Below are positions 19,577 to 44,575 of a stretch of DNA of 44,575 bases, one piece after another. The first letter of the stretch is position 1. Every line of letters starts with the position of its first letter. A program made the position numbers and the translations under genes. Source of the DNA: a virus (lineage: Duplodnaviria > Heunggongvirae > Uroviricota > Caudoviricetes); the IMG/VR virus record IMGVR_UViG_2537561980_000012; one strand, given 5' to 3'. The notes below the pieces were generated by a model, which saw nothing but the letters and a program-made list of their open reading frames with translations, was not told where the DNA came from and did not search any database.

Positions 19577-20410
19577 TCAGCAATTGGTCAGAGTGTCAGC
19601 GGGGGCGTTACCGCCTGTTGCACGCTGGCGGTAGTCCTGGCGGCTGTCTTCATGACTCAGCTTATTCACCAGTTCGTTAAAAGCGGTTTGCTGCTCCTGC
19701 AGAGCAGTCTCCAGTTCAGACAGGCGTTCTTCCTGCTCAGACAGGGATTTTTCGGTGCGTGCGCTCAGGTTCTGCTGCTCAGTGGCGACCAGCTCCACGG
19801 CCTTATGCACATCAGAGAACCGGGCATCATCGGACTGCTCTTTTTTGGTGAACAGCGCCGTGACACGGGCAAACAGGGACGGTTTGTCATCCTGGATTTC
19901 TTCCAGTTCGATCACCGTTTCCTCTGCAGCGGTAAAGAGATTGGCAGGATTCTGCTTGCGGCTTGCCAGCGGGTTATGGGCTGCACTGGCGCTGAATGTC
20001 AGCATTTCCGTACCCAGACTGGCTGGATCATCAGTGGCAGCCAGGCCGACCAGGTAGGCTTTGCCCGTATCAGCAAACTTCGGGCTGACTTCCATAGAGG
20101 TGAATAATTTCTGGCCTTTTTTCACCAGCTCCACCAGGGACTCCGTTGGCTCAACGTCGGCATACAGCGCCATCTTGCCTGCCAGCGGACCTTCCGTGAT
20201 TTCTTCAGCAAACAGCGCCGTCACCTTGCCGTAGCGGTTAAAGGTGCTGTCCGGCAGATAAGACTTGATGTGCTCAAGGTTAATCAGCGCGGTATACACC
20301 GCCGGGTTGTAGCTGGCTGCCATCTGTTCCAGCCATTCACGCTGGATTTCGCGTCCGTCGGTGGTGGCACCTTCCACCCCGATGCGAAAACGCTTTGCTT
20401 TCACTGTCAT
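19577..20410 (-). CDS. O: Capsid scaffolding protein O
   Basis: 277 aa gpO-like with coiled-coil C-terminus. Confidence 0.85.
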   Translation of the reverse strand: MTVKAKRFRIGVEGATTDGREIQREWLEQMAASYNPAVYTALINLEHIKSYLPDSTFNRYGKVTALFAEEITEGPLAGKMALYADVEPTESLVELVKKGQKLFTSMEVSPKFADTGKAYLVGLAATDDPASLGTEMLTFSASAAHNPLASRKQNPANLFTAAEETVIELEEIQDDKPSLFARVTALFTKKEQSDDARFSDVHKAVELVATEQQNLSARTEKSLSEQEERLSELETALQEQQTAFNELVNKLSHEDSRQDYRQRATGGNAPADTLTNC

Positions 20411-20552: not shown

Positions 20553-22319
20553 ATGAACACCACACTGACACCCGCAGATCTCGATCCCCGTCGGCAGGCC
20601 ATGCTGCTGTACTTTCAGGGATACCGCGTAGCCCGCATTGCTGAAATGCTGGGCGAGAAAGTTGCAACCGTTCACAGCTGGAAAAAACGCGACAAGTGGG
20701 GTGACTATGGGCCGCTGGATCAGATGCAGCTCACCACCGCCGCACGCTACTGCCAGCTCATTATGAAGGAGCACAAAGAAGGGAAAGATTTCAAAGAGAT
20801 TGACCTGCTGGCGCGCCAGTCGGAGCGCCACGCGCGGATCGGCAAGTTTAACAATGGCGGCAACGAATCCGACTTAAACCCTAACGTCGCCAACCGCAAC
20901 AAAGGCCCGCGCCGTCAGCCGGAAAAGAATGTTTTCACCGATGAGCAGATTGAGAAGCTGGAAGAAATCTTCCATTCCTCCATGTTCAACTACCAGCGCC
21001 ACTGGTGGGAAGCCGGAAAAACCAACCGCATCCGCAACCTGCTGAAGTCACGCCAGATCGGCGCGACCTTTTACTTTGCCCGTGAAGCCCTGATTGACGC
21101 TCTGCTTACCGGACGTAACCAGATTTTTCTTTCCGCCAGCAAGGCACAGGCTCACGTCTTTAAGCAGTACATCATAGACTTCGCCAAAGAAGTCGAGGTG
21201 GAGCTGAAAGGCGATCCGATGGTGCTTCCTAACGGAGCCACGCTTTACTTCCTCGGCACCAATGCCCGCACGGCCCAGAGTTACCACGGCAACCTGTATC
21301 TGGATGAATATTTCTGGATACCGAAATTCCAGGAGCTGCGCAAAGTGGCTTCTGGTATGGCTATTCACAAAAAATGGCGACAAACCTATTTTTCCACGCC
21401 ATCCAGCCTGACACACAGTGCTTATCCGTTCTGGTCCGGTGCGCTGTTCAACCGTGGGCGCAATAAAGCCGATAAGGTGGACATCGACCTGTCCCACAGC
21501 AATCTGGCCCCCGGCCTGCTGTGCGCAGACGGGCAATACCGCCAGATAGTCACCGTGGAAGATGCAGTGCGCGGCGGATGTAACCTTTTCGACCTCGATC
21601 AGTTGCGCATGGAGTACAGCCCGGACGAATACCAGAACCTGCTGATGTGCGAGTTTGTGGACGATCTCGCGTCCGTGTTCCCGCTCAGCGAGCTGCAGGC
21701 GTGCATGGTGGACAGTTGGGAAGTCTGGACCGACTTTCATGCACTGGCCCTGCGCCCGTTTGGCTGGCGCGAAGTGTGGATCGGTTATGACCCGGCAAAA
21801 GGTACGCAAAACGGCGACAGCGCCGGGTGCGTGGTGGTGGCACCGCCAGCCGTGCCGGGCGGTAAGTTCCGCATTCTTGAGCGTCACCAGTGGCGCGGGA
21901 TGGACTTCCGCGCCCAGGCTAACGCCATCAAAAAACTGACTGAACAGTACAACGTGACATACATCGGTATCGACTCAACCGGCGTCGGTCACGGGGTTTA
22001 CGAGAACGTGAAAGCGTTTTTTCCTGCCGTCCGGGAGTTTGTCTACAACCCCAACGTTAAAAACGCCCTGGTACTCAAGGCCTACGACATTATTAGCCAC
22101 CGCCGCCTGGAGTTTGACGCCGGGCACACCGACATAGCGCAGTCCTTTATGGCAATCCGTCGCGCCACCACTGCCAGCGGCAACCGCCCGACCTATGAGG
22201 CCAGCCGCAGCGAAGAAGCCAGCCACGCCGATCTGGCCTGGGCAACAATGCACGCACTGTTTAACGAACCGCTGCAGGGCGAGTCCGCCAATACCAGCAA
22301 TATTGTGGAGATTTTTTGA
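20553..22319 (+). CDS. P: Terminase large (ATPase) subunit P
   Basis: 588 aa gpP-like; divergent from O as in P2. Confidence 0.9.
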   Translation: MNTTLTPADLDPRRQAMLLYFQGYRVARIAEMLGEKVATVHSWKKRDKWGDYGPLDQMQLTTAARYCQLIMKEHKEGKDFKEIDLLARQSERHARIGKFNNGGNESDLNPNVANRNKGPRRQPEKNVFTDEQIEKLEEIFHSSMFNYQRHWWEAGKTNRIRNLLKSRQIGATFYFAREALIDALLTGRNQIFLSASKAQAHVFKQYIIDFAKEVEVELKGDPMVLPNGATLYFLGTNARTAQSYHGNLYLDEYFWIPKFQELRKVASGMAIHKKWRQTYFSTPSSLTHSAYPFWSGALFNRGRNKADKVDIDLSHSNLAPGLLCADGQYRQIVTVEDAVRGGCNLFDLDQLRMEYSPDEYQNLLMCEFVDDLASVFPLSELQACMVDSWEVWTDFHALALRPFGWREVWIGYDPAKGTQNGDSAGCVVVAPPAVPGGKFRILERHQWRGMDFRAQANAIKKLTEQYNVTYIGIDSTGVGHGVYENVKAFFPAVREFVYNPNVKNALVLKAYDIISHRRLEFDAGHTDIAQSFMAIRRATTASGNRPTYEASRSEEASHADLAWATMHALFNEPLQGESANTSNIVEIF

Positions 22320-23344
22320 TGGGAAAGAGTAAGAAAAACCGCGCTGCGGCGACGAATCAGCTCAAGCATAAAAGCCAAACTTCAGCCGAAGCATTCAGCT
22401 TTGGCGATCCCGTTCCTGTTCTGGACCGCCGTGAACTGCTGGACTATGTGGAATGCGTACAGATGGACCGCTGGTATGAGCCGCCCGTCAGCTTTGACGG
22501 ACTGGCACGAACCTTCCGCGCCGCCGTGCATCACAGCTCACCAATTGCGGTGAAATGCAACATTCTGACCAGTACCTACATCCCTCACCCGCTGCTCAGC
22601 CAGCAGGCTTTTTCACGTTTTGTGCAGGACTATCTGGTATTTGGTAACGCCTACCTGGAGAAACGCACGAACCGCTTCGGTGAAGTTATCGCCCTTGAGC
22701 CTGCTCTGGCAAAATACACCCGACGCGGGTTAGACCTGGATACCTACTGGTTTGTGCAATACGGTATGACAACCCAGCCGTATCAGTTCACGAAAGGCAG
22801 CATTTTTCATCTGATGGAACCGGACATCAACCAGGAGATCTACGGCCTGCCAGGTTATCTTTCTGCCATTCCATCAGCCCTGCTCAACGAGTCCGCCACG
22901 CTGTTCCGCCGCAAGTATTACATTAACGGCAGTCATGCAGGCTTCATCATGTACATGACCGATGCCGCGCAGAACCAGGAGGATGTGAACAACCTCCGCA
23001 ATGCGATGAAAAGCGCCAAAGGCCCTGGCAACTTCCGCAACCTGTTTATGTACTCGCCTAACGGCAAAAAGGACGGGCTTCAGATCATCCCGTTGTCAGA
23101 AGTCGCGGCGAAGGATGAGTTTCTGAATATCAAAAATGTCAGCCGCGATGACATGATGGCAGCGCATCGTGTGCCGCCGCAAATGATGGGGATTATGCCG
23201 AATAATGTTGGGGGGTTTGGGGATGTGGAGAAGGCAAGCCGTGTGTTTGTTCGTAACGAACTAATACCATTGCAAAAAAGATTGGATGAGTTAAATAATT
23301 GGTTAGACGATAAAATAATAACATTTAACACATACAATTTTTAA
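22316..23344 (+). CDS. Q: Portal protein Q (last ~28 codons are AT-rich, cargo-like)
   Basis: 342 aa gpQ-like; ATGA overlap with P; abrupt composition change from about 23250. Confidence 0.9.
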   Translation: MMGKSKKNRAAATNQLKHKSQTSAEAFSFGDPVPVLDRRELLDYVECVQMDRWYEPPVSFDGLARTFRAAVHHSSPIAVKCNILTSTYIPHPLLSQQAFSRFVQDYLVFGNAYLEKRTNRFGEVIALEPALAKYTRRGLDLDTYWFVQYGMTTQPYQFTKGSIFHLMEPDINQEIYGLPGYLSAIPSALLNESATLFRRKYYINGSHAGFIMYMTDAAQNQEDVNNLRNAMKSAKGPGNFRNLFMYSPNGKKDGLQIIPLSEVAAKDEFLNIKNVSRDDMMAAHRVPPQMMGIMPNNVGGFGDVEKASRVFVRNELIPLQKRLDELNNWLDDKIITFNTYNF

Positions 23345-23345
23345 A

Positions 23346-23371
23346 GCAAGCCCTCAATCGAGGGCTTTTGA
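23346..23371. terminator. Hairpin terminator shared by convergent Q and the three-gene cargo operon
   Basis: Stem 'agccctc'/'gagggct' with loop 'aatc', followed by 'ttttg' on plus and 'gcttt' on minus. Confidence 0.6.
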
Positions 23372-23374
23372 AAA

Positions 23375-23896
23375 TCAGTTAATCAGTTTATTTAATGACT
23401 TAGACCACTTCTGTCCCAAATCATCAATATCAAAATCACCATCTCGCTGCTGCCATTTAAAAACTAAGGCTATAAGTTCACTCTTGAGGATTCTTTTATA
23501 ATAATCCTTAGATTTTAATTGCTCAAGTATATGTTCACCAACCTCAGCAAGCTTTCTATGATTTAATTCTGACAGATCTCGATGCAAATGGTTAACTGAT
23601 TTATACAAAGTATTTCCTTCAGTACGAGAAATATCAATACCTTTATCTTCAAACCATTGTGAATCAAGCCAAACCAAATCTATCGTAGCTGGCTCTGACA
23701 TCGTGGTGGCAAGGGCAACAATAATTTTCTCTACCGATTCATCTTGAAAATCGATAGAGTCAGAAACCCAAACTGACAAGGTGTTATTAGAGGTCCTTGT
23801 GCAACCTGTTATCGCGTCTGCGGATATATTGTCAGGTGCTCTACCTTTATTACATTCCCATTTACTATGGGATATTTTACGCAATAAATATGTCAT
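23375..23896 (-). CDS. Hypothetical protein, third gene of AT-rich cargo operon (173 aa)
   Basis: ATG overlaps the upstream stop as TAATG; low GC; no recognisable motif. Confidence 0.7.
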   Translation of the reverse strand: MTYLLRKISHSKWECNKGRAPDNISADAITGCTRTSNNTLSVWVSDSIDFQDESVEKIIVALATTMSEPATIDLVWLDSQWFEDKGIDISRTEGNTLYKSVNHLHRDLSELNHRKLAEVGEHILEQLKSKDYYKRILKSELIALVFKWQQRDGDFDIDDLGQKWSKSLNKLIN

Positions 23897-24543
23897 TATA
23901 GACTTCTCAAATATCCTATAACTGCTTCTTTATATTCTTCCACCCAATCAGCATCAAATTTCCTCATTCTTTCAAGGACTGGAATAAATGATTTTTCCCC
24001 CCAAGACTCAACTGCACGGATCGCTGCCTCAAATATAAGTTCATTCTCAAGAGAACAAACTCCCATAATCATAGCGTCAGCTTTATTACCTAACCATTCA
24101 TATTCAATAGTCGATGCAAAATTAATGAAGTTCTTTACATGTTGATCATTCATTCTGTACAATTGTACCCATGTCCTTTGAAAGGACTCTTGGAATAAAT
24201 CCTGATTTTTATCATACAAGAACTCCATGTAAATCTGTGTCTTGCTTATCTCGCCTTCAATGTAATCTTCTGAACATGTTAACTCAATTAGTCTAGAGGT
24301 ACATTTTGAAACCTGAATTTCAAAGTTCTGCTTAGTTGACGAACCTTGATTTATTGACTCAGTCTCTAATTGAAAGCCACCATTTGTTTTGCTATGTGAC
24401 AGCTCATTTCTTTTAATATCAGCGTAAATGATATTGTTACCATCATAATAATCAGAAAATGCACCTATTGAACTTACCCCATTTTTAAACTTAGGTAAGC
24501 CAAAAGGCTTTTCATCACTTATTATAAAACTATTCTTTACCAT
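23896..24543 (-). CDS. Hypothetical protein, second gene of AT-rich cargo operon (215 aa)
   Basis: Starts 9 nt after the upstream stop with 'aggtga' RBS; no recognisable motif. Confidence 0.7.
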   Translation of the reverse strand: MVKNSFIISDEKPFGLPKFKNGVSSIGAFSDYYDGNNIIYADIKRNELSHSKTNGGFQLETESINQGSSTKQNFEIQVSKCTSRLIELTCSEDYIEGEISKTQIYMEFLYDKNQDLFQESFQRTWVQLYRMNDQHVKNFINFASTIEYEWLGNKADAMIMGVCSLENELIFEAAIRAVESWGEKSFIPVLERMRKFDADWVEEYKEAVIGYLRSL

Positions 24544-24552
24544 AGCATCACC

Positions 24553-25248
24553 TTACAGAGAAGTGTAGCGTTGTAAATTATCAATAGTTTTAAGATTGTC
24601 CTGACACAATAACTCTAGCACGCGGATATATTCATCCCAACCAAACCGCATATATCCATTTTGAGGAAGAGTATTAGTATCAGTTTCAAATAATACGCAA
24701 TCACTTGGCATACCATTATTCAAAAATGGAGCTGAAATTTCAGCGCGTCTAATTGTACTAATACTATTAATTTCTTCCTGATACTCTTCAATATTTTTCC
24801 TTACAGCTATACGATTGTCCCACTCAAATGGATTAACACCTTTATAGGTAAACAAAGCATTGTAAAGCGAAAAGTAAACAGATTCATCCCCTTGATAGAT
24901 ACGTGAATTCAGAACAGCTATCCTATTTCCTTTTTTCATCGGAAATACGTTTTGTAGTTCCCTAGATATAGATAGAACCATTTCTGAAAACGCTTGAGGT
25001 TCCCCCCCCAAACCATTAAAAATGATTCCATGGCTAGGAAACTCGACTCTTACTGTTTGATTGGTATCTACCATGATAAGAATTTGCTTTTTCTCACCAG
25101 TGATGGCATTAATCTCCTGACCAAAAGTAGGTACAAATCCAAATTTTCCAATCTTATCAAGCATAGATCCAATAGTTAGTGTATTTGGAACTATATCATT
25201 ATTATTTGTGAAAAAATTAATCTGATGCGTCTGTTCAATCAATTTCAT
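24553..25248 (-). CDS. Hypothetical protein, first gene of AT-rich cargo operon (231 aa)
   Basis: ATG start with AGGAG 6 nt upstream; no recognisable motif. Confidence 0.7.
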   Translation of the reverse strand: MKLIEQTHQINFFTNNNDIVPNTLTIGSMLDKIGKFGFVPTFGQEINAITGEKKQILIMVDTNQTVRVEFPSHGIIFNGLGGEPQAFSEMVLSISRELQNVFPMKKGNRIAVLNSRIYQGDESVYFSLYNALFTYKGVNPFEWDNRIAVRKNIEEYQEEINSISTIRRAEISAPFLNNGMPSDCVLFETDTNTLPQNGYMRFGWDEYIRVLELLCQDNLKTIDNLQRYTSL

Positions 25249-25385
25249 AATTGCTCCTTGTTCAAAAAAACACCACCGCTCAGTGGTTCCTCTCTGTTAA
25301 AATATTCTAGTTCAACTTACTCTCAATATGAATCAAAGCTTAACCCTGGTTGGTAATTAAGTCACACTTTTCTTCATAGTAAGGG

Positions 25386-25404
25386 ATTTCGCGCGCTCGT
25401 ATCC
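25386..25404. other. cos-like cohesive-end site (P2/186 type)
   Basis: Minus strand reads 'GGCGTGGCGGGGATACGAG'; first 13 nt match the 186/P2 19-nt cohesive end as I recall it (GGCG[T/A]GGCGGGGAAAGCA). Confidence 0.5.
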
Positions 25405-25459
25405 CCGCCACGCCTGCCCGCTTTATGTAGTGGTTTTCATGCACCTGCATGAGCTACGC

Positions 25460-25483
25460 AAAAGCCCGCCAGTTCTGGCGGGC
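25460..25483 (-). terminator. Rho-independent terminator downstream of the DinI-like gene
   Basis: Stem 'gcccgccag'/'ctggcgggc' followed by a T-run on the minus strand. Confidence 0.6.
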
Positions 25484-25618
25484 CTTAGCAAAAACGATCC
25501 TCAAACGATCATGCGATCTCATGCGGCATAGACATGCACTACAGAGCTAACGCCTCGCAAGGGCTCGTTGTTCAACCTTGCTGACGCCAGAAGCAAGTTC
25601 AGACGCCAGCAACGTTTC

Positions 25619-25849
25619 TTAATGCAGCCAGCTGTCGTCTTCCCACACCTTCTGCATAATTTTCATCACTTGTTTTCTTTCTTCGTCCAGTTGCAGTCCG
25701 GTTAGTTCCACACCGTTAGAGCTACCTTTGCGAATGCGAATTACCGTTTTGGGATACAGGGGGCGCAGATTGCGGTAAAGCTCGGATTCAAGGGCGTCCA
25801 GGGTAGACTGGCTAATCTTCTGCTCTTTATCGATCATTATTTCAATGCG
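25619..25849 (-). CDS. DinI-family protein (Tum-like antirepressor C-terminal module)
   Basis: 'MRIEIMIDKEQ...LDALESELYRNLRPLYP...VWEDDSW' resembles E. coli DinI ('MRIEVTIAK...AGELSRRIQYAFP...TWESADDW'); GAGGTGA RBS before the ATG. Confidence 0.7.
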   Translation of the reverse strand, partial: RIEIMIDKEQKISQSTLDALESELYRNLRPLYPKTVIRIRKGSSNGVELTGLQLDEERKQVMKIMQKVWEDDSWLH

Positions 25850-25862
25850 CATAAAAGTCACC

Positions 25863-26051
25863 TCAGCTGATGACATCCATTGAGCGGTTGTATTCGTGGG
25901 TTCTGATTTTTGCCATGAGTTCATCAGTCAATTCAGAAACCCACTGCAGAGCCAGCCCCTTCTCTTCATCACTACACTCACTAGCCGCTACAAGCTTAAG
26001 AAAAAAATCAATGCGCTGGAGCTTCAAAGACTCCAAAAAATAGTCCTGCAT
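25863..26051 (-). CDS. Small SOS-regulated protein (62 aa), co-transcribed with the DinI-like gene
   Basis: ATG at 26051 with GGAGG RBS; LexA box about 45 bp upstream; its stop overlaps the RBS of the next gene. Confidence 0.5.
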   Translation of the reverse strand: MQDYFLESLKLQRIDFFLKLVAASECSDEEKGLALQWVSELTDELMAKIRTHEYNRSMDVIS

Positions 26052-26204: not shown

Positions 26205-28618
26205 TTAATACAGGTTCCGCCACTGATCATCTTCCTGCAAACGCTGGCTCCGATAGAAGATACGCAGGCCTGCTCCTGACGGAATACTGCCTCCGCGAAG
26301 GAGTAAATCGACCTCTTTCTCGCTGCCATCAAATCCTCTGGACTTCAGCTCATACACGAGCTGCAGTCGCTGATGGTCTGTAATTCGCTGTTTGTAGTCT
26401 TTACGCCGTTTCGGTTTCACCAGGCATAACCTTGCTGCCAGTTCCCGGCGCTCTTTTTTGCTCATACTGTGCAGGTAATCGTGCAACTCCTTGTCATCCA
26501 TGCTGGTAATGTCCGTTCTGGGGTCCCCATCAGCTGATTTATCTTTCTCCTGTTGGTTCAAATTTTCAGCAAGGGGACAGTTATTGCCACGAGTCCAAGG
26601 GGCGCAAGCGCCCTGGTCGGCTGCCGCCTCCTGAACGTCAACGGCTTTACGAACCATTTTCCACTTCACTGCATGAGTGCAGATCTTGCCCTCTGCAATG
26701 GGTGACCAGATGCCATAAATACGAATACCGTGATCGCCATAGGCGGTCGGCTCTTCGTTGATTTCATAAGCGGTTCTGATGAGGTGATATTTACGGGGAA
26801 CCAGTACGCCGCCCTGCTTCATGATGTAGGTGGCAAAGCAACCAGCATCAGCTGCAGCCAGAATGGCATCAAGGCGCTGGTTATCCAGTACCGGCGCACC
26901 TGCTTTTTTGTCACCCTGTTGCCTTGCCGCCTGACCAGCCAGCAATCGCAGTTCACGGTAAGCCTGACGCCCCGGAATGCCAAAGAAGCGGAATTGCTGA
27001 ACACGATGCAGAGACGCCCAGGCATTAACGTATTCAGCGTTATCACGCAGAGATTTACCCGTTTCCTTGCTGATCTCGCCAGCCAGACCACGCCCGTCAA
27101 TGTTCTTACTGATATATTTCGCGATGTAGCTTGTCGGCGTTCCTTTGCGCGGGTTAATCAACTCAGACTTAAAGCGCGGCCCAGTGTTATTGCCCAGCTC
27201 CTCGCGGTCTTCACGGATGGCAAACTTACGCAGTAATGCAGTGATGGCGCGGCGGCTTTTTTGCGCATAAAACACAACAGGTGCCAGTGAACTGTACCGT
27301 CATGATGCGGCTCAGCCACCCGCACGCCATACCAGCGCAATCCGGCTTTGTGCATCGCCTTACGAAATGCAGCAAACATGCCGACCAGATAGTCGCTGCT
27401 TTGTCTTACCGTCGAGTTTGTCCAGGTCGGGTTGGGTCTGCCGTTATTGAGCGTGGAATGGAAACGCGACGGACAGGTGATAGTGTAGAAAACGGCGCAG
27501 TCACCGCGCATTTCCGCGATAAGCTCCAGACCTTTAACACAGGCCATCATCTCATTGCGGCGATGCGCCGGGTTGCTGCTGCTGGCGTTTACCACATCTT
27601 CCATATCCAGCGTGTCGCCGTCTTCGTTCACCAGTTCATGAGAACGGAAAAACTCCAGCGACTTACGGCGCTGCTCACGTTTATGCATCACGGCTTCATA
27701 GCTGACATAGGGGGATGCTTTTTTGCTGACCAGGCAGACAGCACGCAACTGCTCTTCCCGCCATTCGCAACGCATCTTCCATAATTTCCGATACCACCAG
27801 TCGGCACACAACATACGCGCCAGCGAACCCGGAATGAGTTCATAGGGCACGGGTTTACGGCGGTTTCTTTTCCGACGGAGTTGCTCAAACGCAGGCGGAA
27901 TAACATCCAGACGCAGGGTTTCCGCTGCCACCTTTTCCCATGTTTTGCGGATTTCTTCTGGCTTAACGTCATCGGTGGCATACAAATCACCACAAGCGGC
28001 ATCAAGGCACATGCTCATATGCGCAGCGACAAGGGTGGACAGGCGCTTCACCTGATCCTGACTCATTTCAGGCAGGATAAGCAGGCCATCCAGCCCTTCA
28101 TGGCTTGCCATAAAGCGAAAAGAAGTGGATAGCTGACAGTCGCGGACATGCTCCAGTCGTTCCAGACATGGCTTAATCGTCTCACGCAAATAGCGGGAAT
28201 AAGCCTTTGGCCTGCCCAGGCTGCTGAAATATTCAATACGTTGCATCAGCGGCTTGCTGATATGGGAAGGCTGGGCGTTGACGTCAGCCAGAATGACCAT
28301 GTCCGGATTAAAACGCTGCTGCTCATGCGCCAGCTTTGCCCGGCTAATGAGCTTATCCTGCTCCATTTCGCGCTGGACAGGATCACGGGATTCATTAAAG
28401 AAATAACGCTCCCAGACCTGATCACTCAGTGCCTCGCGGCGCAGTTGTTCCTGCTCGTTATCGGCAGCGTACAGAGTGATCAGGTTTGAAAGTGCAGAAA
28501 CCGGCGCAACTTCCGCCGGGTCCAGATAAGGGTTAATGGCCTTTTTTGGGCTGTTCCATGAGAATGCTGCGGCGACCTCGTTAAAGCCGCTGCAGTTGTT
28601 CATATCAGCATGGCTCAT
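26205..28618 (-). CDS. A: Replication initiation protein A (rolling-circle HUH endonuclease), interrupted by a 1-nt deletion in a T6/A6 run (plus 27257-27262)
   Basis: '[17 protein letters not shown]' then, after a frame change, '[12 protein letters not shown]...[12 protein letters not shown]', colinear with P2 A; adding one A in 'cgcaaaaaagcc' restores the frame. Confidence 0.85.
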
Positions 28619-29472
28619 GCACGCACTCCGTACACGGCGGAACAATCCACGCCACGCGAAGGATCAAATCCTATCCAGCAGCGCGGCCCGGCAACAGCAA
28701 TGATTTCTGTTGCAGATTTACTCTCACCAGCTGCCACGCCGATGCTGCGTTTTGCCTTGATGTAGTGGTGAGTAAAATTGCGATACAGCGAACGGATCAG
28801 GGATGTGTCACTGTTAGAAATAATGACCGGATATCCTTCTGATGACCAATGTTCAAGAACAGATGCCAGGTGATACTGGTCATCTTCAGTGAAACCATCA
28901 GTGTGATAGCCGGAAAACGTACCGTCATAAGGCGGATCGCAATACACCACATCCCCCGCGTGCAACATCGCCAGCGTTTCATCGAAGCTGGCGCAGATAA
29001 ACGTTGCCCGCTGGGCTTTTACTGCAAATGCACGAATTTCTTTTTCAGGAAAATACGGATTTTTATAATTACCGTAGGGAATGTTGAAATGCCCGCTCTT
29101 GTTATAGCGACATAAACCACGGTAACCGTGACGATTGAGATACAGGAAATATATCGCTTTCATAAAATCAGTAATTTCAGTTGAGTAATTAAACTCCTGC
29201 CTTATGTTGTAATAATCCATCTCCCTGTTTGCGTTCTCAAATAAAACTCTGGCGCGAGATATAAACGATTCACAATCAGCGGCAACCTTTTTATAGAGGT
29301 TGATTAAATCAGGATTAATATCCGCAACCAGATAGCTGGGATAATCCGTCTCCATCATCACAGCACAGGAACCCGCGAAAGGTTCAACCAGTCGCGGGCC
29401 AGCAGGAAGATGTTTTTTCAGTTCGGACATTATGGCAGTTTTATTTCCCGCCCATTTCAGGATGGTGCTCAT
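28615..29472 (-). CDS. dam: DNA adenine methyltransferase (Dam family)
   Basis: 'LKWAGNK' and 'DPPY' motifs; ATGA-coupled to the upstream zinc-finger gene and to A. Confidence 0.85.
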
Positions 29473-32299: not shown

Positions 32300-33316
32300 A
32301 TGACTGTCAGAAAACAGCCAAACGGCAAATGGTTGTGTGAGTGCTATCCCAATGGACGCAATGGCAAGCGCGTGCGTAAGCAATTTGCTACGAAAGGAGA
32401 AGCCATTGCTTTTGAAAGCTTCACAATGGAAGAAGTGAATAAAAAACCGTGGCTAGGTGAAAAGGATGATCGGCGACGCCTATCAGAATTAATTGAGCTT
32501 TGGTATTCCCTGTATGGCCAGACACTCGCAGACCCCAAGCGCCTCATGGCGAAACTTAGAATTATCTGTAATGGTCTAGGCGACCCCATCGCCTCAGAAC
32601 TGACAGCCGGTGACTTTACAAAATACCGCGAAGCACGGTTAAAAGGCGACGTTCGTAACGAAGACGGCACACTAATGTCGCCAGTAAAACCACGCACGGT
32701 GAATCTTGAGCAACGTAACCTATCATCGGTTTTCGGCACATTGAAAAAACTAGGCCACTGGTCAGCACCAAATCCTCTCGCCGGGCTGCCAACATTTAAA
32801 ATCGCTGAGGGGGAACTGGCGTTCCTGACCTCGGAAGAAATTAAACGTCTGCTAGATGCCTGCGCTGATTCTCAAAACCCCAGTCTGCTTTTGATTGCAA
32901 AAATATGCCTGGCCACCGGCGCACGCTGGAGTGAAGCCGAAAACCTGCAGGGCCATCAGTTATCTAAATACCGCATCACTTATACCAAGACGAAGGGCAA
33001 GAAAAACCGCACCGTGCCGATATCTCAAGATCTGTATGACGAACTCCCCAAGAACAGAGGGAAGCTATTCACCCCGTGCAGAAAAGCCTTTGAACGGGCA
33101 GTAAAGCGAGCTGGCATCGAGCTGCCAGAGGGCCAATGCACTCACGTGCTACGTCATACATTCGCCAGTCATTTTATGATGAATGGCGGAAACATACTGG
33201 TCCTACGCGATATTCTGGGCCATGCCGATATAAAAATGACGATGATTTACGCCCACTTTTCGCCGGATCATCTTGAAGATGCAGTTACTAAAAACCCTTT
33301 ATGCAACTTAAGATAG
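32300..33316 (+). CDS. int: Tyrosine integrase (P2/186 family)
   Basis: C-terminal catalytic region 'HVLRHTFASHF...LGHADIKMTMIYAHF'. Confidence 0.9.
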   Translation: MTVRKQPNGKWLCECYPNGRNGKRVRKQFATKGEAIAFESFTMEEVNKKPWLGEKDDRRRLSELIELWYSLYGQTLADPKRLMAKLRIICNGLGDPIASELTAGDFTKYREARLKGDVRNEDGTLMSPVKPRTVNLEQRNLSSVFGTLKKLGHWSAPNPLAGLPTFKIAEGELAFLTSEEIKRLLDACADSQNPSLLLIAKICLATGARWSEAENLQGHQLSKYRITYTKTKGKKNRTVPISQDLYDELPKNRGKLFTPCRKAFERAVKRAGIELPEGQCTHVLRHTFASHFMMNGGNILVLRDILGHADIKMTMIYAHFSPDHLEDAVTKNPLCNLR

Positions 33317-33632
33317 AGTAACTTATGAAAATAAACTCAAATTATTTACAAATATAATATTCAGCAGGTTATCCATTCTTATTTAACTCTTCAGACTGAG
33401 ATTAGATTTTATTTATAGAATAAGATAATTTCATATCACAAAAAACCTGTAAGCCCTCATCTTTGTTGTATAAAAACATAAAAGATGCCATATTTAAAAA
33501 AGTAGAAAAGCATTGCAATGCAACATTAAAAATAAACCAATAAAAACCAGTCATTAGAAAATGAAAAAAAAACAAAAACATTTTTTATCAAAGCTTCAGT
33601 CTGACTACTAGTTGGACTCTGCAATTAACTAT

Positions 33633-33662
33633 CAAGATGATCAATATTTATTGATCATCTTG
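33633..33662. repeat. 30-bp near-perfect palindrome containing two GATC sites
   Basis: 'caagatgatcaata tt tattgatcatcttg', 14-bp arms; 34 nt downstream of the deaminase gene stop. Confidence 0.6.
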
Positions 33663-33695
33663 AAGTTGCCCTCAGGAAAGATGAGTATAATATTT

Positions 33696-35438
33696 CTACT
33701 CAAGAAGATATTCTAACTCATCTTTTATCGGGATAACTTGCTCATAAAGTCGGTGATATGACTTCCCAATTGCGCCTCTGAATTGTATTAACTTTGGTGG
33801 CTTGTTACCTATATTAATAATATGGTCTTGAGCTATACCTGGGTAGGGATCAATAAATACAATTTCAGATATACCTAACTGATAAGCTTTTTTCGCACAC
33901 AGCTCACAGGGACTGGCAGTTGTATATAACCTCCCCCCCTGAACGCCAATGCCACCATATTTTGCAAGTTGTAAAAATGCGTTTTCCTCAGCATGTAATG
34001 CACGTGTATGAACTTGATTACCTTTTTTATCTTTATCAAGATCATTATGTATATCTTTAAAACAATAAGATAAGTTCCTGCCTCTATAAATATCACCAGT
34101 TTTATCTATCGCCCTAAAATTTAATAGTTTCTCATTAGCTTTAATTCTGAAAGAACTATTATTTCTCTCATAATGACTGTACACTTTTTCATCAAAGTCG
34201 TTCATTAGGCCATCTAGCGATCTCATAGAGCAAGGAATCTGACCGTTGGCGACATCATTCCAACCCACTGATTTTATTGAATTTTCACCATCAGTTACTA
34301 CAGCTCCCACCTGTCTAGATATACAACCAGAGTTTAATTTTACCGTATACGCAACTTGCATAACCCTTTCCATTGCAGTAGGTGTTATCAGACCAGGATG
34401 CTTCATCAGTGCGATGTACCACGCTAATTGTGCTTTTAAAATATTGTCATTATCAAATTCATTTTTTGGGTTAAAAATGTGTATATCTGATAGTTCAATG
34501 CATTTAGTTACATTTGGATTAGTGAGATGTTTGTAAGAGTTATCACCTTTACCTGACTCTACAGAATCTATTTCCTCTATCTGCTTTTCAGAAAACTTAT
34601 GTAGTTTCCGCAAATAGTTTGTTCGATGTTCATCTGGGGCATTTATTGACATTAAATGAAATGCAGAATATCTATCCTTAAAAAATTTTGCTTCATATGG
34701 ATTTCTAATAGCATCTATGACAATTAATGCGTTATCTCTTTTGCTTTTTCTTATTAATTTAATAACCCTATTAATAGTTTCCGGCAAATGAAAAACAGAT
34801 TTAGGTATAAACTCTTTATCTTCAAAATCGACTTCAATACGCCCACGGCGTCTAATTGACTTACCTGCTAACTGATAGACTGAAACATATAAATTTGAGT
34901 TTATCGCATTTAGTTCAGCTTTGAATTCCTTAGTAAATTTTCTAACTAACCTCAAAATTGATATAAATTTATTAATCGTTTTTTCATTAAGCTTCAATTC
35001 ACTATTATGATCAAGCAAATTCTCAATTACATTTTTAAATCTTGTTAAAATGAGATTATCTGAAAATACACCAAAAGTTAATACATTATCTAAATGCTCT
35101 TTACTGATAGATTTATTAGATGATAGAATAAACTCAGAAGCTTCTTCAACTGTTAACATCAAAAGATACGCTGAGATTAGGTCACTCACCTTAATTGAGT
35201 AAAAATTTTCCCAGTGATTTTCTGCGAATTTTTTAACTATATTATAACGATGGACATCCAATCCCTTGTAAAAACCCTGTAATTTACTTACATCAGGGAA
35301 GACTGTTTTTTCGTTTTCAAGAATATTAGCTGTTGTTGTGCAACCAGAACCAGTTCGACCTGTCAAACCGACTAAAATAAACTGCCCATTTTCAAGGAAA
35401 AGCTCACTAACGAATTTTTTTCTTTCATCACGTCCCAC
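33696..35438 (-). CDS. P-loop nucleotide kinase fused to cytidine/dCMP deaminase (AvcD / defensive dCTP-deaminase type)
   Basis: N-terminal Walker-A-like 'GLTGRTGSGCTTT'; C-terminal zinc-deaminase motifs 'HAEENAF' and 'PCELCAKKA'. Very low GC. ORF as given starts at GTG; an ATG at 35426-35428 becomes in-frame if the T7 run at 35415-35421 is one base short. Confidence 0.75.
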   Translation of the reverse strand: MGRDERKKFVSELFLENGQFILVGLTGRTGSGCTTTANILENEKTVFPDVSKLQGFYKGLDVHRYNIVKKFAENHWENFYSIKVSDLISAYLLMLTVEEASEFILSSNKSISKEHLDNVLTFGVFSDNLILTRFKNVIENLLDHNSELKLNEKTINKFISILRLVRKFTKEFKAELNAINSNLYVSVYQLAGKSIRRRGRIEVDFEDKEFIPKSVFHLPETINRVIKLIRKSKRDNALIVIDAIRNPYEAKFFKDRYSAFHLMSINAPDEHRTNYLRKLHKFSEKQIEEIDSVESGKGDNSYKHLTNPNVTKCIELSDIHIFNPKNEFDNDNILKAQLAWYIALMKHPGLITPTAMERVMQVAYTVKLNSGCISRQVGAVVTDGENSIKSVGWNDVANGQIPCSMRSLDGLMNDFDEKVYSHYERNNSSFRIKANEKLLNFRAIDKTGDIYRGRNLSYCFKDIHNDLDKDKKGNQVHTRALHAEENAFLQLAKYGGIGVQGGRLYTTASPCELCAKKAYQLGISEIVFIDPYPGIAQDHIINIGNKPPKLIQFRGAIGKSYHRLYEQVIPIKDELEYLLE

Positions 35439-35623
35439 TTATGAATGTAAGAATATTCAACATATTAATTATAATTTATTAACTCATTTTGTTCTAGATA
35501 CTTGATGTAATGGCGGCACTTTGGCGACGGAGCATTAAAAACGCGTAAGACGAGCAAATACAACAAAACACTAACACATTGTTTTTAAATATAAATAGCT
35601 GTTTTTACTATACTAAAAATGGT

Positions 35624-39991: not shown

Positions 39992-41365
39992 TCATTGAAA
40001 ACTGCTTTTAGAACTTGATACAACGGGACTAGTCACAACAGGACTATTCTCAACGGGATCATCCTCAGAGGAACTATCATCAAAGTCATCATCCATAAAT
40101 AAAATATCATCGAATGGTGCCACGCCCGTGATGAGTTTTATTTTATTATTACGATCAGTCAAGACTCCACTTAAACCGTTTTCGCTCACAGGTTTTAATG
40201 ATTTTTCATTACTCTTGTTGTAAGCAGGCGCATTAAAAATACACGGAGTATCAAGATCAAACAATGACGTTCCCCAGTTCACATATTGAATATCATAGTT
40301 ACTGAAGTTCTGTCCAGAAAAGAAGCATCCCTTAAAATCCAATCCACCTAAATTATATAAACCATCCTCTTCTTTTTGGAGAGTAATGTTAATTTTGGCT
40401 ATCTCCCGGACATCATCGCCATTTTTATATTTGAATACCGTTTCAAGATTTTCCCCACACAGTTTGACTTCTGGAAATAATTTGAAATCAAAGCCTATAT
40501 TATTATGTATCAACGTAGATGAACAAAAGATGGAGAAAGCTTGCAGTGCTGAATTATAGCTTTCGATTTTATCCTGAGGCTGCGCTCTTGGTAAAAACTC
40601 ATAGCAACATTCATAAAAATTAAGTAGAAACTCTGAAGACCTTCCATTTTTATCAAATAATATCCCCTTGAACTCATTCACAAACGCATCTTTTTTTTCT
40701 TGAATATCTATGGGGTGTTCCTTTGACTCTGACAAAGATGAAATCTCATCTATTTTGTTTTCATATGAATTACGTGATTCCATACAGACATTTGGCGGCG
40801 TTTCTAAAATAACACTACGCGTACTACTTGGCTTAAGTAAACCAACATGAAAATCACTTTTTCTTATATTATCGAAAAGGTTCTGTTCATTTCTTTTAGC
40901 GCATTCAAAAAACTGATCGGCATTATTTTTATTCGATAATTTTTTAGTTTCAGAAAACACATTTTCATTGTTTTCCAGCTTTAGTTTAATGAGAAGATTT
41001 TCCCAGGCCTGCTTGCTTAAACATATTACGTCAGGCTCACCAGAACTAACTAACTCGTGATTATTATTAAAGTGTACGTTGAATACCTTTAAGTTATTTT
41101 CACCAACTTCATATTTAATACGTTTTAATTGTTCTCCAGCTCCCATAATGACAAAGGCGTTGCCTTCTTGATATATACATTCAGACATCATTTTTTGTAA
41201 AGTTTCAAGAGCACCGCGATACGTCTCTGATGCAGCTTCCTTACAAATTAATTTTAAAATACTATGAGCTAGTAGCTCCATGTGTTTAGAAGATTTATTT
41301 TCATTATAACTTCCACTACCCAAAACTGCGCTAGCGTTAAATCCGTTGCTTTTACTAACTAACAT
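39992..41365 (-). CDS. Hypothetical AT-rich protein (457 aa) with acidic C-terminal tail
   Basis: Long ORF, low GC, Asn/Lys-rich; no catalytic motif recognised. Confidence 0.6.
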   Translation of the reverse strand: MLVSKSNGFNASAVLGSGSYNENKSSKHMELLAHSILKLICKEAASETYRGALETLQKMMSECIYQEGNAFVIMGAGEQLKRIKYEVGENNLKVFNVHFNNNHELVSSGEPDVICLSKQAWENLLIKLKLENNENVFSETKKLSNKNNADQFFECAKRNEQNLFDNIRKSDFHVGLLKPSSTRSVILETPPNVCMESRNSYENKIDEISSLSESKEHPIDIQEKKDAFVNEFKGILFDKNGRSSEFLLNFYECCYEFLPRAQPQDKIESYNSALQAFSIFCSSTLIHNNIGFDFKLFPEVKLCGENLETVFKYKNGDDVREIAKINITLQKEEDGLYNLGGLDFKGCFFSGQNFSNYDIQYVNWGTSLFDLDTPCIFNAPAYNKSNEKSLKPVSENGLSGVLTDRNNKIKLITGVAPFDDILFMDDDFDDSSSEDDPVENSPVVTSPVVSSSKSSFQ

Positions 41366-42116
41366 TGTCTATTCCTCAATTAATGTCTACATGGCTATTT
41401 TTAATTTTATTATTGTTTGTCACTATAAAAAATCGCTCATTTGAGACAATTGCTGGCATTAACAGCTTCATATGCTATACATGGTACTTTTAATTAAATT
41501 AGCACAAGAATGTTAAATTTAATAAACAAAAAGTTATTTCGCTGTATGATAAAAACCACCCGTTATAATTTATTAGTGAAATTCGTTTTTCGAGTGTTAG
41601 AAATTTATATCTCAATAGCGTTGGTTAATGAGCATAGCCACGCTCCTGTAACGCTCACAAAACTCATCTGCCTGCGGCGGGTGTTCTGGTCAGTAGTAGA
41701 TGTTTAAGGCGTGGCAGAGACATTTCATCCTTACTCTACGGCATTGTTCTACATACATTGGTTGTGGTACTCACTCATCATCAGTGAGCGAACAGAGAAT
41801 AGTTCAGTGATTTGAGTAATTAACCTGATTAAATTAAGGGGTATAATAAATGATAATACTCTGGCTTTATCGTTAATTACTTAATTCCACATGTAAGCAA
41901 TTTGCCCGCTTGGCATAGCGGGCATTTTTTCCAGGTACTTTTGAATGAGTACTGATGGATAAATACATTGCAGTGGCGTGCCACGTACCAAAACACCAGC
42001 CCTCATTCGAAACAACCCACCGCACTTCTTCCTTGAAATGGCGTTAGTCATGAAATATAGACCGCCATCGAGTACCCCTTGTACCCTTAACTCTTCCTGA
42101 TACGTAAATAATGATT

Positions 42117-42192
42117 TGGTGGCCCTTGCTGGACTTGAACCAGCGACCAAGCGATTATGAGTCGCCTGCTCTAACCACTGAGCTAAAGGGCC
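42117..42192 (-). tRNA. ileY: tRNA-Ile2 (anticodon CAU, ileX/ileY type)
   Basis: Minus strand reads 'GGCCCTTTAGCTCAGTGGTTAGAGCAGGCGACTCATAATCGCTTGGTCGCTGGTTCAAGTCCAGCAAGGGCCACCA'; cloverleaf with CAT anticodon and encoded CCA. Confidence 0.9.
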
Positions 42193-42751
42193 TTGAGTGT
42201 GCAATAACAATACTTATAAACCACGCAATAAACATGATGATCATATGATGTAAATAACAGATTTTTATGCGTTCTCATTCATCCTTGCTCGTCATTACAC
42301 GCGACATAAAACCCGACACCGCTTCCATTCGCAAAGTCGATACTCGCAGTCAACAAGCAAATGTTAATAATTAGCACTATCTATAGTTATCATCGATTCA
42401 ATGATACTTTGTAATGATTTTGTATCTAATAATATAAGTTTATTACATTAACTGAAGAGTTTTCGCATCATTATGATATCTGTTACTTTTCACTCCATAA
42501 AAATAAACTTCGTATAGCAATATATTCTTTCATAGATCTTATTCTGCTAATCATTAGTTTCGTATGAGCGATTTTTGACAGTTGCCTCTCCAGACCACAT
42601 CGATAATTAATAAAACAGATTTAAGCATTATCCTTTTCCATATAAATATTGGATAAAAGTAGGACATCTGTTTGCAATTACTTTCACAACAATTAAACAT
42701 TTTTATGTTTCCGTATACATCATATTACTCTACCATTAGAGGAACTTTATT

Positions 42752-44575
42752 ATGTTTTCTATAAAACCAGGACCCAGAAATTTACCTATCGACAACCCCA
42801 CATTGTTATCATGGAACATTACTGACGGGGATCTAAATTCCAAATTAAATACATTAGAATATCTAAACTGTATAACAAATATTATTAATTCTTGTGGAGT
42901 TTACCCTCAAGGATTAAAAGACAGAGAAATTATATCAACTTTTCACGCAGAAAAAGTTATTAATGATCTGTTAAAAAACGATTATAAAATTTCCCTTTCT
43001 CCAGATACAACTTATCGAGAGTTGAATAAAGCAGCACAGCGTAGCATTACAGCGCCAGACAGGATAGGAGAAGGAAAATCATGGGTTTATCAAAGAGATA
43101 CAATGATTGAAAGAGGTGATAACAGCGGTGTTCATCAGTATGGTCCTGCTGAACATTTCACCCACATTATATCTGACAAACCGTCCCCAAAAGATGAGTA
43201 TATTGCATATGCTATTAACATTCCTGACTATGAGCTGGCAGCCGATGTATATAATATTAACGTGACGTCACCTTCCGAACAGCAAGAAACATTTAAAATA
43301 CTAATCAATCCAGAACATCTACGGCAAACACTTGAGCGTAAATCTCTTACTGCTGTTCAGAAATCACAATGTGAAATCATAACCCCCAAAAAACCTGGCG
43401 AAGCGATTCTTCATGCTTTTAATGCCACCTACCAGCAAATCAGGGAAAATATGTCTGAGTTTGCACGTTGCCATTATGGGTATATACAAATCCCTCCAGT
43501 GACAACTTTCCGCGCCGACGGACCAGAAACTCCCGAAGAAGAAAAGGGTTACTGGTTTCATGCTTATCAACCCGAAGATCTTTGTACCATCCATAATCCA
43601 ATGGGAGATTTGCAGGATTTTATTGCATTGGTTAAAGATGCTAAAAAATTTGGTATCGATATCATTCCTGATTATACCTTTAACTTTATGGGAATTGGGG
43701 GTAGTGGTAAAAATGACCTGGATTATCCCTCTGCTGATATACGAGCGAAGATCAGTAAAGATATAGAAGGTGGTATCCCTGGCTATTGGCAAGGTCAGGT
43801 TTTGATTCCATTCATTAAAGATCCAGTAACAAAAGAACGTAAACAAATCCATCCAGAAGATATACATCTCACTGCAAAAGACTTCGAAGCAAGTAAAGAT
43901 AACATCTCTAAGGATGAATGGGAAAACCTCCATGCATTAAAAGAAAAGCGTTTAAATGGAATGCCTAAAACAACACCCAAAAGTGACCAGGTTATTATGT
44001 TGCAAAATCAATACGTTCGTGAAATGCGAAAATATGGCGTACGAGGTTTACGTTATGATGCGGCAAAACACTCAAAACATGAACAAATAGAAAGATCAAT
44101 AACCCCACCGCTTAAAAATTATAATGAGCGGTTACACAATACTAACTTATTTAACCCAAAATATCATAAAAAAGCCGTTATGAATTACATGGAATATCTG
44201 GTAACTTGTCAGTTGGATGAACAACAAATGTCATCACTGCTTTATGAAAGAGATGATTTAAGCGCCATTGATTTTTCATTGCTCATGAAAACGATAAAAG
44301 CCTTTTCATTTGGTGGAGATCTTCAAACCCTTGCATCAAAACCGGGTTCCACAATCTCAAGTATCCCATCAGAAAGACGGATATTGATTAACATTAACCA
44401 CGATTTTCCTAACAATGGTAATCTTTTCAATGACTTTCTATTTAACCATCAACAAGATGAACAATTAGCAATGGCATATATAGCCGCTCTGCCGTTCAGC
44501 AGGCCTTTAGTTTACTGGGATGGCCAAGTACTGAGAGATCCCCTCATAATTTCCCCAAAGCGTAACCATGTGTGA
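42752..44575 (+). CDS. Alpha-amylase-like (GH13 family) protein, 607 aa
   Basis: 'GVRGLRYDAAKH' resembles GH13 region II 'GFRLDAAKH'; 'GIDIIPDYTFNFMG' resembles region I; low GC; context matches the ygaQ region next to ileY in E. coli K-12. Confidence 0.6.
   Translation: MFSIKPGPRNLPIDNPTLLSWNITDGDLNSKLNTLEYLNCITNIINSCGVYPQGLKDREIISTFHAEKVINDLLKNDYKISLSPDTTYRELNKAAQRSITAPDRIGEGKSWVYQRDTMIERGDNSGVHQYGPAEHFTHIISDKPSPKDEYIAYAINIPDYELAADVYNINVTSPSEQQETFKILINPEHLRQTLERKSLTAVQKSQCEIITPKKPGEAILHAFNATYQQIRENMSEFARCHYGYIQIPPVTTFRADGPETPEEEKGYWFHAYQPEDLCTIHNPMGDLQDFIALVKDAKKFGIDIIPDYTFNFMGIGGSGKNDLDYPSADIRAKISKDIEGGIPGYWQGQVLIPFIKDPVTKERKQIHPEDIHLTAKDFEASKDNISKDEWENLHALKEKRLNGMPKTTPKSDQVIMLQNQYVREMRKYGVRGLRYDAAKHSKHEQIERSITPPLKNYNERLHNTNLFNPKYHKKAVMNYMEYLVTCQLDEQQMSSLLYERDDLSAIDFSLLMKTIKAFSFGGDLQTLASKPGSTISSIPSERRILININHDFPNNGNLFNDFLFNHQQDEQLAMAYIAALPFSRPLVYWDGQVLRDPLIISPKRNHV

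Follow-up and report, generated by a model that had tools for sequence, protein, structure and literature searches.

The 3' end of a phage portal gene raises the question of where accessory DNA stops and the phage backbone begins. In the stretch of 44,575 nt analysed here (the window; IMG/VR record IMGVR_UViG_2537561980_000012), the initial annotation pointed out that the last ~28 codons of the portal gene Q switch abruptly to AT-rich codons at 23250 and continue the composition of the downstream cargo. It proposed that the recombination junction that brought in this cargo lies inside Q, so that the portal would carry a chimeric C-terminus. Does the border of the cargo lie within an essential virion gene and, if so, what did this gene receive? 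As set out below, the region ~23240–25414 very probably constitutes one exchangeable cassette, whose portal tail is inherited with the cargo and would be swapped by a crossover in Q combined with an exchange at cos.

The locus and its prophage

The window carries an E. coli P2-like prophage (Peduoviridae) of the Fels-2/Elveevirus type, the map of which is reversed relative to P2. The gene order is gpO-gpP-gpQ-cargo-cos-DinI-gpA, followed by a Dam methylase gene. The context of Q is provided by gpO (19577–20410, minus strand) and by the terminase large subunit gene gpP (20553..22319, plus strand), a 588-aa ORF at a position where relatives are annotated as encoding terminase large subunit/gpP. 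Q itself (22319..23344, plus strand) starts at an ATG at 22319 that overlaps the gpP stop codon, the program-made ORF list starting it at a TTG at 22316. Its product is a member of the portal family PF04860 (Phage_portal; E 1.4e-17, 64.3 bits for a cut-off of 39.1), is 92–95% identical (aa) to annotated portal proteins of Elveevirus/Klebsiella/E. coli phages and is 61% identical to the Q proteins of P2 type. Three cargo ORFs on the minus strand (23375–25248) converge on Q. Beyond cos lie a DinI-family gene (25619..25924, minus strand; Pfam PF06183, E 1.3e-22, residues 38–100), which probably starts further downstream than listed, and the split replication gene gpA (26205–28645, minus strand).

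The cargo is thus located between gpQ and gpA and adjoins cos, the flanks being conserved and the gene content variable, as in the hotspot known at this place in P2-like phages. Among 5,426 complete E. coli genomes, only four carry the locus stretch as a whole (99.9–100% identity), whereas 1,286 carry the flanks only, with other cargo (TIR, PIN, P-loop NTPase, DUF2971 and others). The same layout with another cargo is found in annotated relatives, namely 4LV2017 (retron), Cartapus (DUF4145), 813R9 (Ymh-domain) and Fels-2. In Cartapus, the annotated cos lies just beyond the DUF4145 cargo.

Two features of the prophage outside the locus were also observed. The gpA gene consists of two overlapping ORFs (356 and 495 aa) with a frame change near 27257–27278; a tblastn search with the intact gpA of phage 813R9 places the frame switch at these same positions, with 97–98% identity on both sides. 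The prophage may therefore be replication-defective, or the frameshift may be a sequencing error; in the relative CP019275, the endonuclease is likewise annotated as frameshifted. Furthermore, beyond the integrase/repressor end of the prophage, 33261–35541 and 40421–42931 contain long stretches in which the GC content of 96-nt windows is at most 0.30, and these may be other islands or accessory DNA of the host flank.

A composition break near the end of Q

Two segments can be distinguished within Q. The body (22319–23236, plus strand) belongs to the phage backbone and ends with a conserved GGFGDVEKA motif, the last position of which is 23236. The remaining 35 codons and the stop codon (23237..23344, plus strand), hereafter the tail, go with the cassette; they are AT-rich from ~23249 and have a GC content of 0.278, compared with 0.532 for the body. 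The C-terminus of the protein reads ...ELIPLQKRLDELNNWLDDKIITFNTYNF, exactly as quoted in the initial annotation. The GC content of the last 96 nt of Q is 0.250, against a mean of 0.535 (sd 0.036, minimum 0.458) in the 96-nt windows upstream of 23237, and GC3 falls from 0.65 in the first 310 codons to 0.25 in the last 32 (Fisher p = 1.6e-5). In bins of 30 nt, the break is located at 23249, where GC drops from 0.57 to 0.33 and GC3 from 0.6 to 0.2. The switch reported at 23250 is therefore real and comprises 95 nt, i.e. ~31 codons plus the stop codon, close to the ~28 codons first reported. Its continuity with the cargo is also borne out, the 2 kb that follow Q having a GC content of 0.348, so that tail and cargo match in composition.

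With a profile of Q proteins, the alignment to the HK97 portal (8cez, E 1.5e-4) reaches query position 317, which would make the tail the last helix and strand, following the conserved VPPxxxG...GxxE motif. A phmmer search of Q against PDB sequences gave no match, and a single-sequence AlphaFold model of Q (pLDDT 33) was not used.

The tail follows the cargo and not the portal body

Relatives were examined at 160 fetched loci encoding Q relatives, in 136 of which Q, the GGFGDVEKA motif and cos could all be located. These comprise 126 cargo-bearing loci, falling into 76 cargo clusters, and 10 cargo-free loci with 142–243 nt between the Q stop codon and cos. The loci are not independent samples, and dereplication by cargo type was applied for some of the statistics only.

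The tails of the cargo-free loci have a GC content of 0.43–0.61, like their own Q bodies, and those of P2 and 186, with their cargo on the opposite side of cos, have 0.51 and 0.54, respectively; all of them differ in sequence from the window tail. By comparison, the mean tail GC of the 126 cargo-bearing loci is 0.36 (Mann-Whitney p = 8e-7). When one locus is kept per cargo type (n = 76), the values are 0.356 for the tail, 0.366 for the cargo and 0.541 for the Q body. The GC contents of tail and cargo are correlated (Spearman 0.57 over the 76 types, 0.72 over all 136 loci).

The sequences themselves show the same association. In pairs of loci with different cargos (n = 7,779), tail identity has a median of 61.5% and a maximum of 82.5%, whereas in pairs with homologous cargos it tracks cargo identity (rho 0.90). 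Where the cargos are at least 99% identical, the tails are 92.5–100% identical even though the Q bodies differ by 2–8%; conversely, Q bodies that are 99.0–99.2% identical over 900 nt carry tails only 58–63% identical when their cargos differ. In whole-locus profiles, an island of 99–100% identity extends from the tail to cos between flanks at 94–97%. The window tail is found in only four of the 5,426 complete E. coli genomes, always with the window cargo, the next best E. coli matches being at most 79.5% identical over the first 83–98 nt. The linkage of tail and cargo is therefore not a one-off, as it holds for all 76 cargo types examined, and the proposal of a junction inside Q that yields a chimeric portal C-terminus is supported, the tail being specific to each of these types.

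These data bear directly on the possibility that the AT-rich tail is a lineage feature of the portal gene, conserved whatever lies downstream and unrelated to the cargo. P2-like portals do all have a homologous C-terminal segment, even those of only 60% overall identity, and the tails of most relatives are AT-rich too. However, an AT-rich tail conserved in relatives devoid of cargo, which the initial annotation had named as evidence against its reading, was not found, the 10 cargo-free loci and P2/186 having GC-normal tails. The tail moreover differs with every cargo type even on 99% identical Q bodies, and that of the window occurs only with the window cargo. A mere lineage feature is hence hardly credible.

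The tail is a diverged allele of the portal C-terminus

The 104 distinct tail peptides of the sample align in register, and the residues V3, F4, V5, R6, N7, E8, L9, P11, L12, Q13, K14, R15, N20, W22, I28, F30 and Y33 are kept among them. All residues conserved at 90% or more in this set are present in the window tail, which aligns to the other portal tails without gaps and has the same length (35 codons). Compared with the consensus, its replacements are G to D, E to K/D, V to I, R to T and P to T; as read from the sequence against this consensus, all of them run toward AT-rich codons. The tail has a pS of 0.86 and a pN of 0.24 (pN/pS 0.28), compared with 0.28 and 0.009 for the body, and its synonymous sites are saturated. 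The tail is thus under purifying selection. As the conserved residues are kept and pN/pS is 0.28, the change of tail amounts to a homologous allele swap: judged from its sequence, the tail is a genuine allele of the usual Q C-terminus that diverged long ago, and not a new sequence. The chimeric C-terminus that had been proposed therefore stands, with the refinement that the tail is a homologous portal allele of ancient divergence and not a sequence derived from the cargo.

Illegitimate recombination inside Q, by which foreign DNA would have supplied an unrelated but tolerated C-terminus, would explain that composition is continuous from the tail to the cargo, as well as the arrival of a copy of this block in a non-homologous context (the metagenomic contig described below). 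Nevertheless, the gapless alignment, the length of 35 codons shared with other tails and the retention of VFVRNEL-PLQKR, N20, W22, I28, F30 and Y33 leave next to no likelihood for such an event.

Another explanation is that the portal C-terminus is hypervariable under diversifying selection, imposed by portal-sensing defence or by satellite interference, its association with cargo being incidental. Portal proteins can trigger some defence systems, and diversity at first and second codon positions is ~0.33–0.36 in the tail compared with ~0.005 in the body, both of which speak in its favour. However, pN/pS and the synonymous saturation indicate that the divergence is old and constrained, identical tails are found on Q bodies differing by 2–8% whenever the cargo is identical, the shift in composition matches the cargo, and replacements toward AT-rich codons are those expected from mutation bias. 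Diversifying selection is consequently an unlikely cause, and the homologous swap of a tail allele along with its cargo is the reading retained here.

The left border inside Q

Two approaches were used to locate the left border. Along 48 close, dereplicated relatives, third-position diversity is ~0.15 over most of Q, rises to 0.27–0.37 at 23069–23219 and reaches 0.47–0.63 from 23219 through the tail, whereas diversity at first and second positions is near 0 up to 23219 and then rises to as much as 0.36. In addition, 26 pairs of loci that share one cassette on different Q bodies or backbones were compared, and the last mismatch before the shared cassette lies at window-equivalent positions 23131–23236 in 23 of them. 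In recent transfers, the left junction thus falls within the last ~100 nt before the tail. These results define a junction zone in Q (23120..23250, plus strand), which encodes an invariant peptide (...RDDMMAAHRVPPQMMGIMPNNVGGFGDVEKAS) but is, at the DNA level, a mosaic with pieces in common with different relatives.

In the window itself, exact-match runs of 43–65 nt with relatives carrying other cargos persist to ~23241–23250; past this point, they are at most 26 nt long and soon shorter than 10. The identity of Q to its relatives therefore collapses where the initial annotation had predicted. Since all copies of this cassette in a P2 context are found in near-identical prophages, no transfer was observed and the window's own junction is placed by the onset of divergence, probably near 23240–23252. 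The recombination junction that had been postulated is inside Q as claimed, but as a mosaic zone (~23120–23250) rather than as a single clean point.

The G-rich stretch coding for GGFGDVEKA was considered as a specific recombination site, cos-like or other. This candidate was rejected, as third-position diversity is 0.34–0.47 in this stretch and synonymous positions are not conserved; on visual inspection, it bears little resemblance to cos.

The right border at cos and the segment beyond

The right border of the cassette is the cos region (25390..25446), which is 98% identical to the annotated putative cos of Cartapus. It includes a predicted 19-nt cohesive end (25396–25414; reverse complement GGCGTGGCGGGGATACGAG) that matches cosL of phage 186 at 15 of 19 bases, the cleavage position being predicted by homology. 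Right junctions were mapped in the cassette-sharing pairs by anchored ungapped comparison and whole-locus identity profiles. In ~20 of the 26 pairs, the first mismatch past the shared cassette lies 28–38 nt into the cos homology, i.e. 4–14 nt past the predicted cohesive end; in five, identity runs for at least 80 nt past the start of this homology.

Several relatives sharing a cassette are fully different in the segment on the gpA/DinI side of cos (8001–9000 in L112, 8001–9250 in L140 and 7251–8500 in L153; the equivalent in the window, 25447–25618, is short). This segment looks like a second variable region that swaps independently, the counterpart of the old/tin side of P2, and its presence right of cos could on its own make identity stop there.

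A single case gives information on the block as a unit. The 4,775-nt contig Ga0157359_1006604 (IMGVR_UViG_3300012997_000090, hereafter L169) encodes a lambda P-like helicase loader, DinI and NinB, which indicates a lambdoid context. It matches the window at 96% nucleotide identity over 23224–25408 only, this block spanning the three cargo genes and reaching 13 nt into the predicted cohesive end. In L169, a 75-aa ORF has the portal tail as its C-terminus, with no portal body upstream. A P2-type terminal cassette thus appears to have been transplanted into a phage of a different type, and this one case shows the block from tail to cos behaving as one piece that ends inside cos.

The cargo operon and its hairpin

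Three genes make up the cargo, all on the minus strand: gene 1 (24553..25248, 231 aa; phrog_19817, E 3e-137), gene 2 (23896..24543, 215 aa; phrog_21208, E 6e-118) and gene 3 (23375..23896, 173 aa; phrog_10743, E 2e-89), the three phrog families being of unknown function. The proteins have nothing credible in Pfam (also at E up to 10) or NCBIfam, and they match no family of PADLOC-DB v2 at E up to 0.01, i.e. no known defence system of this database. It is by its location in the hotspot that the operon is a candidate for a role in defence, and a reasonable one. Upstream of it, two weak sigma-70-like promoter matches (9 of 12 consensus positions) are found at 25299..25332 on the minus strand, in a region where such matches are no more numerous than expected from shuffled sequence.

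Between the converging Q and cargo genes, a GC-rich hairpin followed by TTTT (23348..23367; RNAfold -13.5 kcal/mol) is probably a bidirectional terminator specific to the cassette, although a scan for consensus terminators did not list it. P2 and 186 have the annotated terminators tQ/tW at the equivalent place. In five other loci (L001–L005) as in the window (23345–23374), a GC-rich hairpin follows the Q stop codon immediately, that of each cassette being unrelated to the others, which suggests that the terminator of the essential P-Q operon is also borne by the cassette.

A homologous operon is carried by a P2-like prophage from a human gut metagenome (contig OVHL01000098, hereafter L177; 2766–4700 in reverse-complement coordinates). 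Its proteins are 39–54% identical (aa) to those of the window, gene order and location between Q and cos being unchanged, and the gene 1 homologue (39%) heads the three-gene operon. The cargo would therefore represent a conserved family of three-gene operons resident in the hotspot and absent from PADLOC and Pfam. The tail of L177 (GC 0.29) is only 61% identical to that of the window, which is the background level, and ranks 122nd of 136 in similarity to it.

This last comparison is relevant to the idea that tail and cargo are functionally matched, the portal C-terminus of a cassette being tolerated or needed by its own cargo (self-immunity or activation). The one-to-one association of tails and cargos over 76 cargo types would be expected in such a case. 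However, it spans unrelated cargos (retron, TIR, PIN, P-loop NTPase, DUF4145, Abi), which favours generic linkage; at cargo nucleotide identities of ~0.61–0.65, tail identity is 0.59–0.68, again the background level; and the tail of L177 is, as stated, among the least similar to that of the window despite a homologous operon. Functional matching thus seems very unlikely. Likewise improbable is the related proposal that each cassette brings a tail matched to its cargo, for example one that keeps the prophage's own portal from triggering the system of the cassette, or lets the portal control this system, the whole forming a co-evolving unit.

The origin of tail and cargo was also searched for. 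No donor match was found in the phage collection, and plasmids gave a single weak match of 140 nt (Acinetobacter). In a tblastn search with the tail peptide, the closest tails elsewhere are at most 73% identical (aa), with no sign of an origin in AT-rich hosts. The AT-richness of the tail could result from import from such hosts, or from the drift of a non-recombining segment under AT-biased mutation.

A model for the exchange of the cassette

Taking together the linkage of tail and cargo, their matching composition, the two borders and the purifying selection on the tail, we infer the following scenario. The cassette comprises the last ~35 codons of Q, the terminator hairpin and, on the other strand, the three-gene operon, and it stops at the predicted left cohesive end of cos. 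Its place between Q and cos corresponds to the far left end of the chromosome as packaged. Cassettes would move between related phages by homologous crossover just upstream of the tail, where a strong amino-acid constraint (PPQMMGIMPNNVGGFGDVEKAS, and the stretch encoding RDDMMAAHRVPPQMMGIMPNNVGGFGDVEKAS) would preserve the nucleotide identity that a crossover requires. At the other end, the border would form at cos or beside it, through a second crossover or through the annealing of compatible cohesive ends. Tails, being too diverged to recombine with other tails, would remain locked to their own cargo and would take on its AT-rich composition, the outcome being a functional chimeric portal.

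If so, a concrete model of one crossover in Q and one exchange at cos becomes available for the locus, and delimiting the hotspot by genes, as the interval between gpQ and gpA, misplaces its true border. Portal C-termini could then be used as markers of cassette ancestry, and the relatives would amount to a natural collection of over 100 chimeric portal C-termini that are functional.

Comparison with known systems

The cos-adjacent gpA-gpQ hotspot of P2-like phages has been described (Rousset et al. 2022, PMC9122126; NAR 2026, PMC13586616) and is also the subject of the iLund4u preprint (10.1101/2024.10.15.618418). The window resembles it in its variable, AT-rich accessory or defence cargo next to cos and in the fast swapping of this cargo between near-identical core genomes. 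In their available text, the first two papers leave open the mechanism of the very fast turnover of cassettes, PMC9122126 suggesting that cohesive ends seed exchange, and all three sources treat the locus as intergenic. No passage on a junction inside gpQ, or on a portal C-terminus linked to the cassette, was found in the accessible parts of PMC9122126, PMC13586616 and 10.1101/2024.10.15.618418, and a wider literature search gave nothing closer. P2 itself (old/tin) differs from the window in that its cargo lies on the gpA side of cos, its Q being directly followed by tQ and cos, whereas the window and the Fels-2/Elveevirus phages carry their cargo on the Q side.

The hitch-hiking of a flanking gene with a hypervariable locus is known from gnd, beside the O-antigen rfb cluster of E. 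coli. In both cases, a conserved gene shows a sharp, mostly synonymous divergence that decays away from the polymorphic locus, third-position diversity falling here from 0.6 to 0.15 over ~300 nt away from the cargo. Unlike gnd, the linked segment of the window lies inside an essential virion gene, is synonymously saturated and has the base composition of the cargo.

The locus can also be compared with the morons and mosaic joints of lambdoid phages (Hendrix/Juhala model). The unit in the window differs in composition from the backbone genes between which it lies, carries a hairpin terminator and may have its own promoter. However, a moron leaves the neighbouring genes intact, whereas the left border of this unit is located in Q (~23240–23252), ~105 nt inside the upstream essential gene.

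Finally, recombination focused at cos is said to have been described in phage lambda by Stahl and co-workers. The right border of recent transfers similarly lies often within ~15 nt of the predicted cohesive end, and the L169 block ends inside it; the positions of the borders could equally reflect two independent hotspots split by a conserved cos. The hotspot and its fast turnover were thus already known, and what is added here is the fine-scale border inside the portal gene and the portal tail linked to the cassette.
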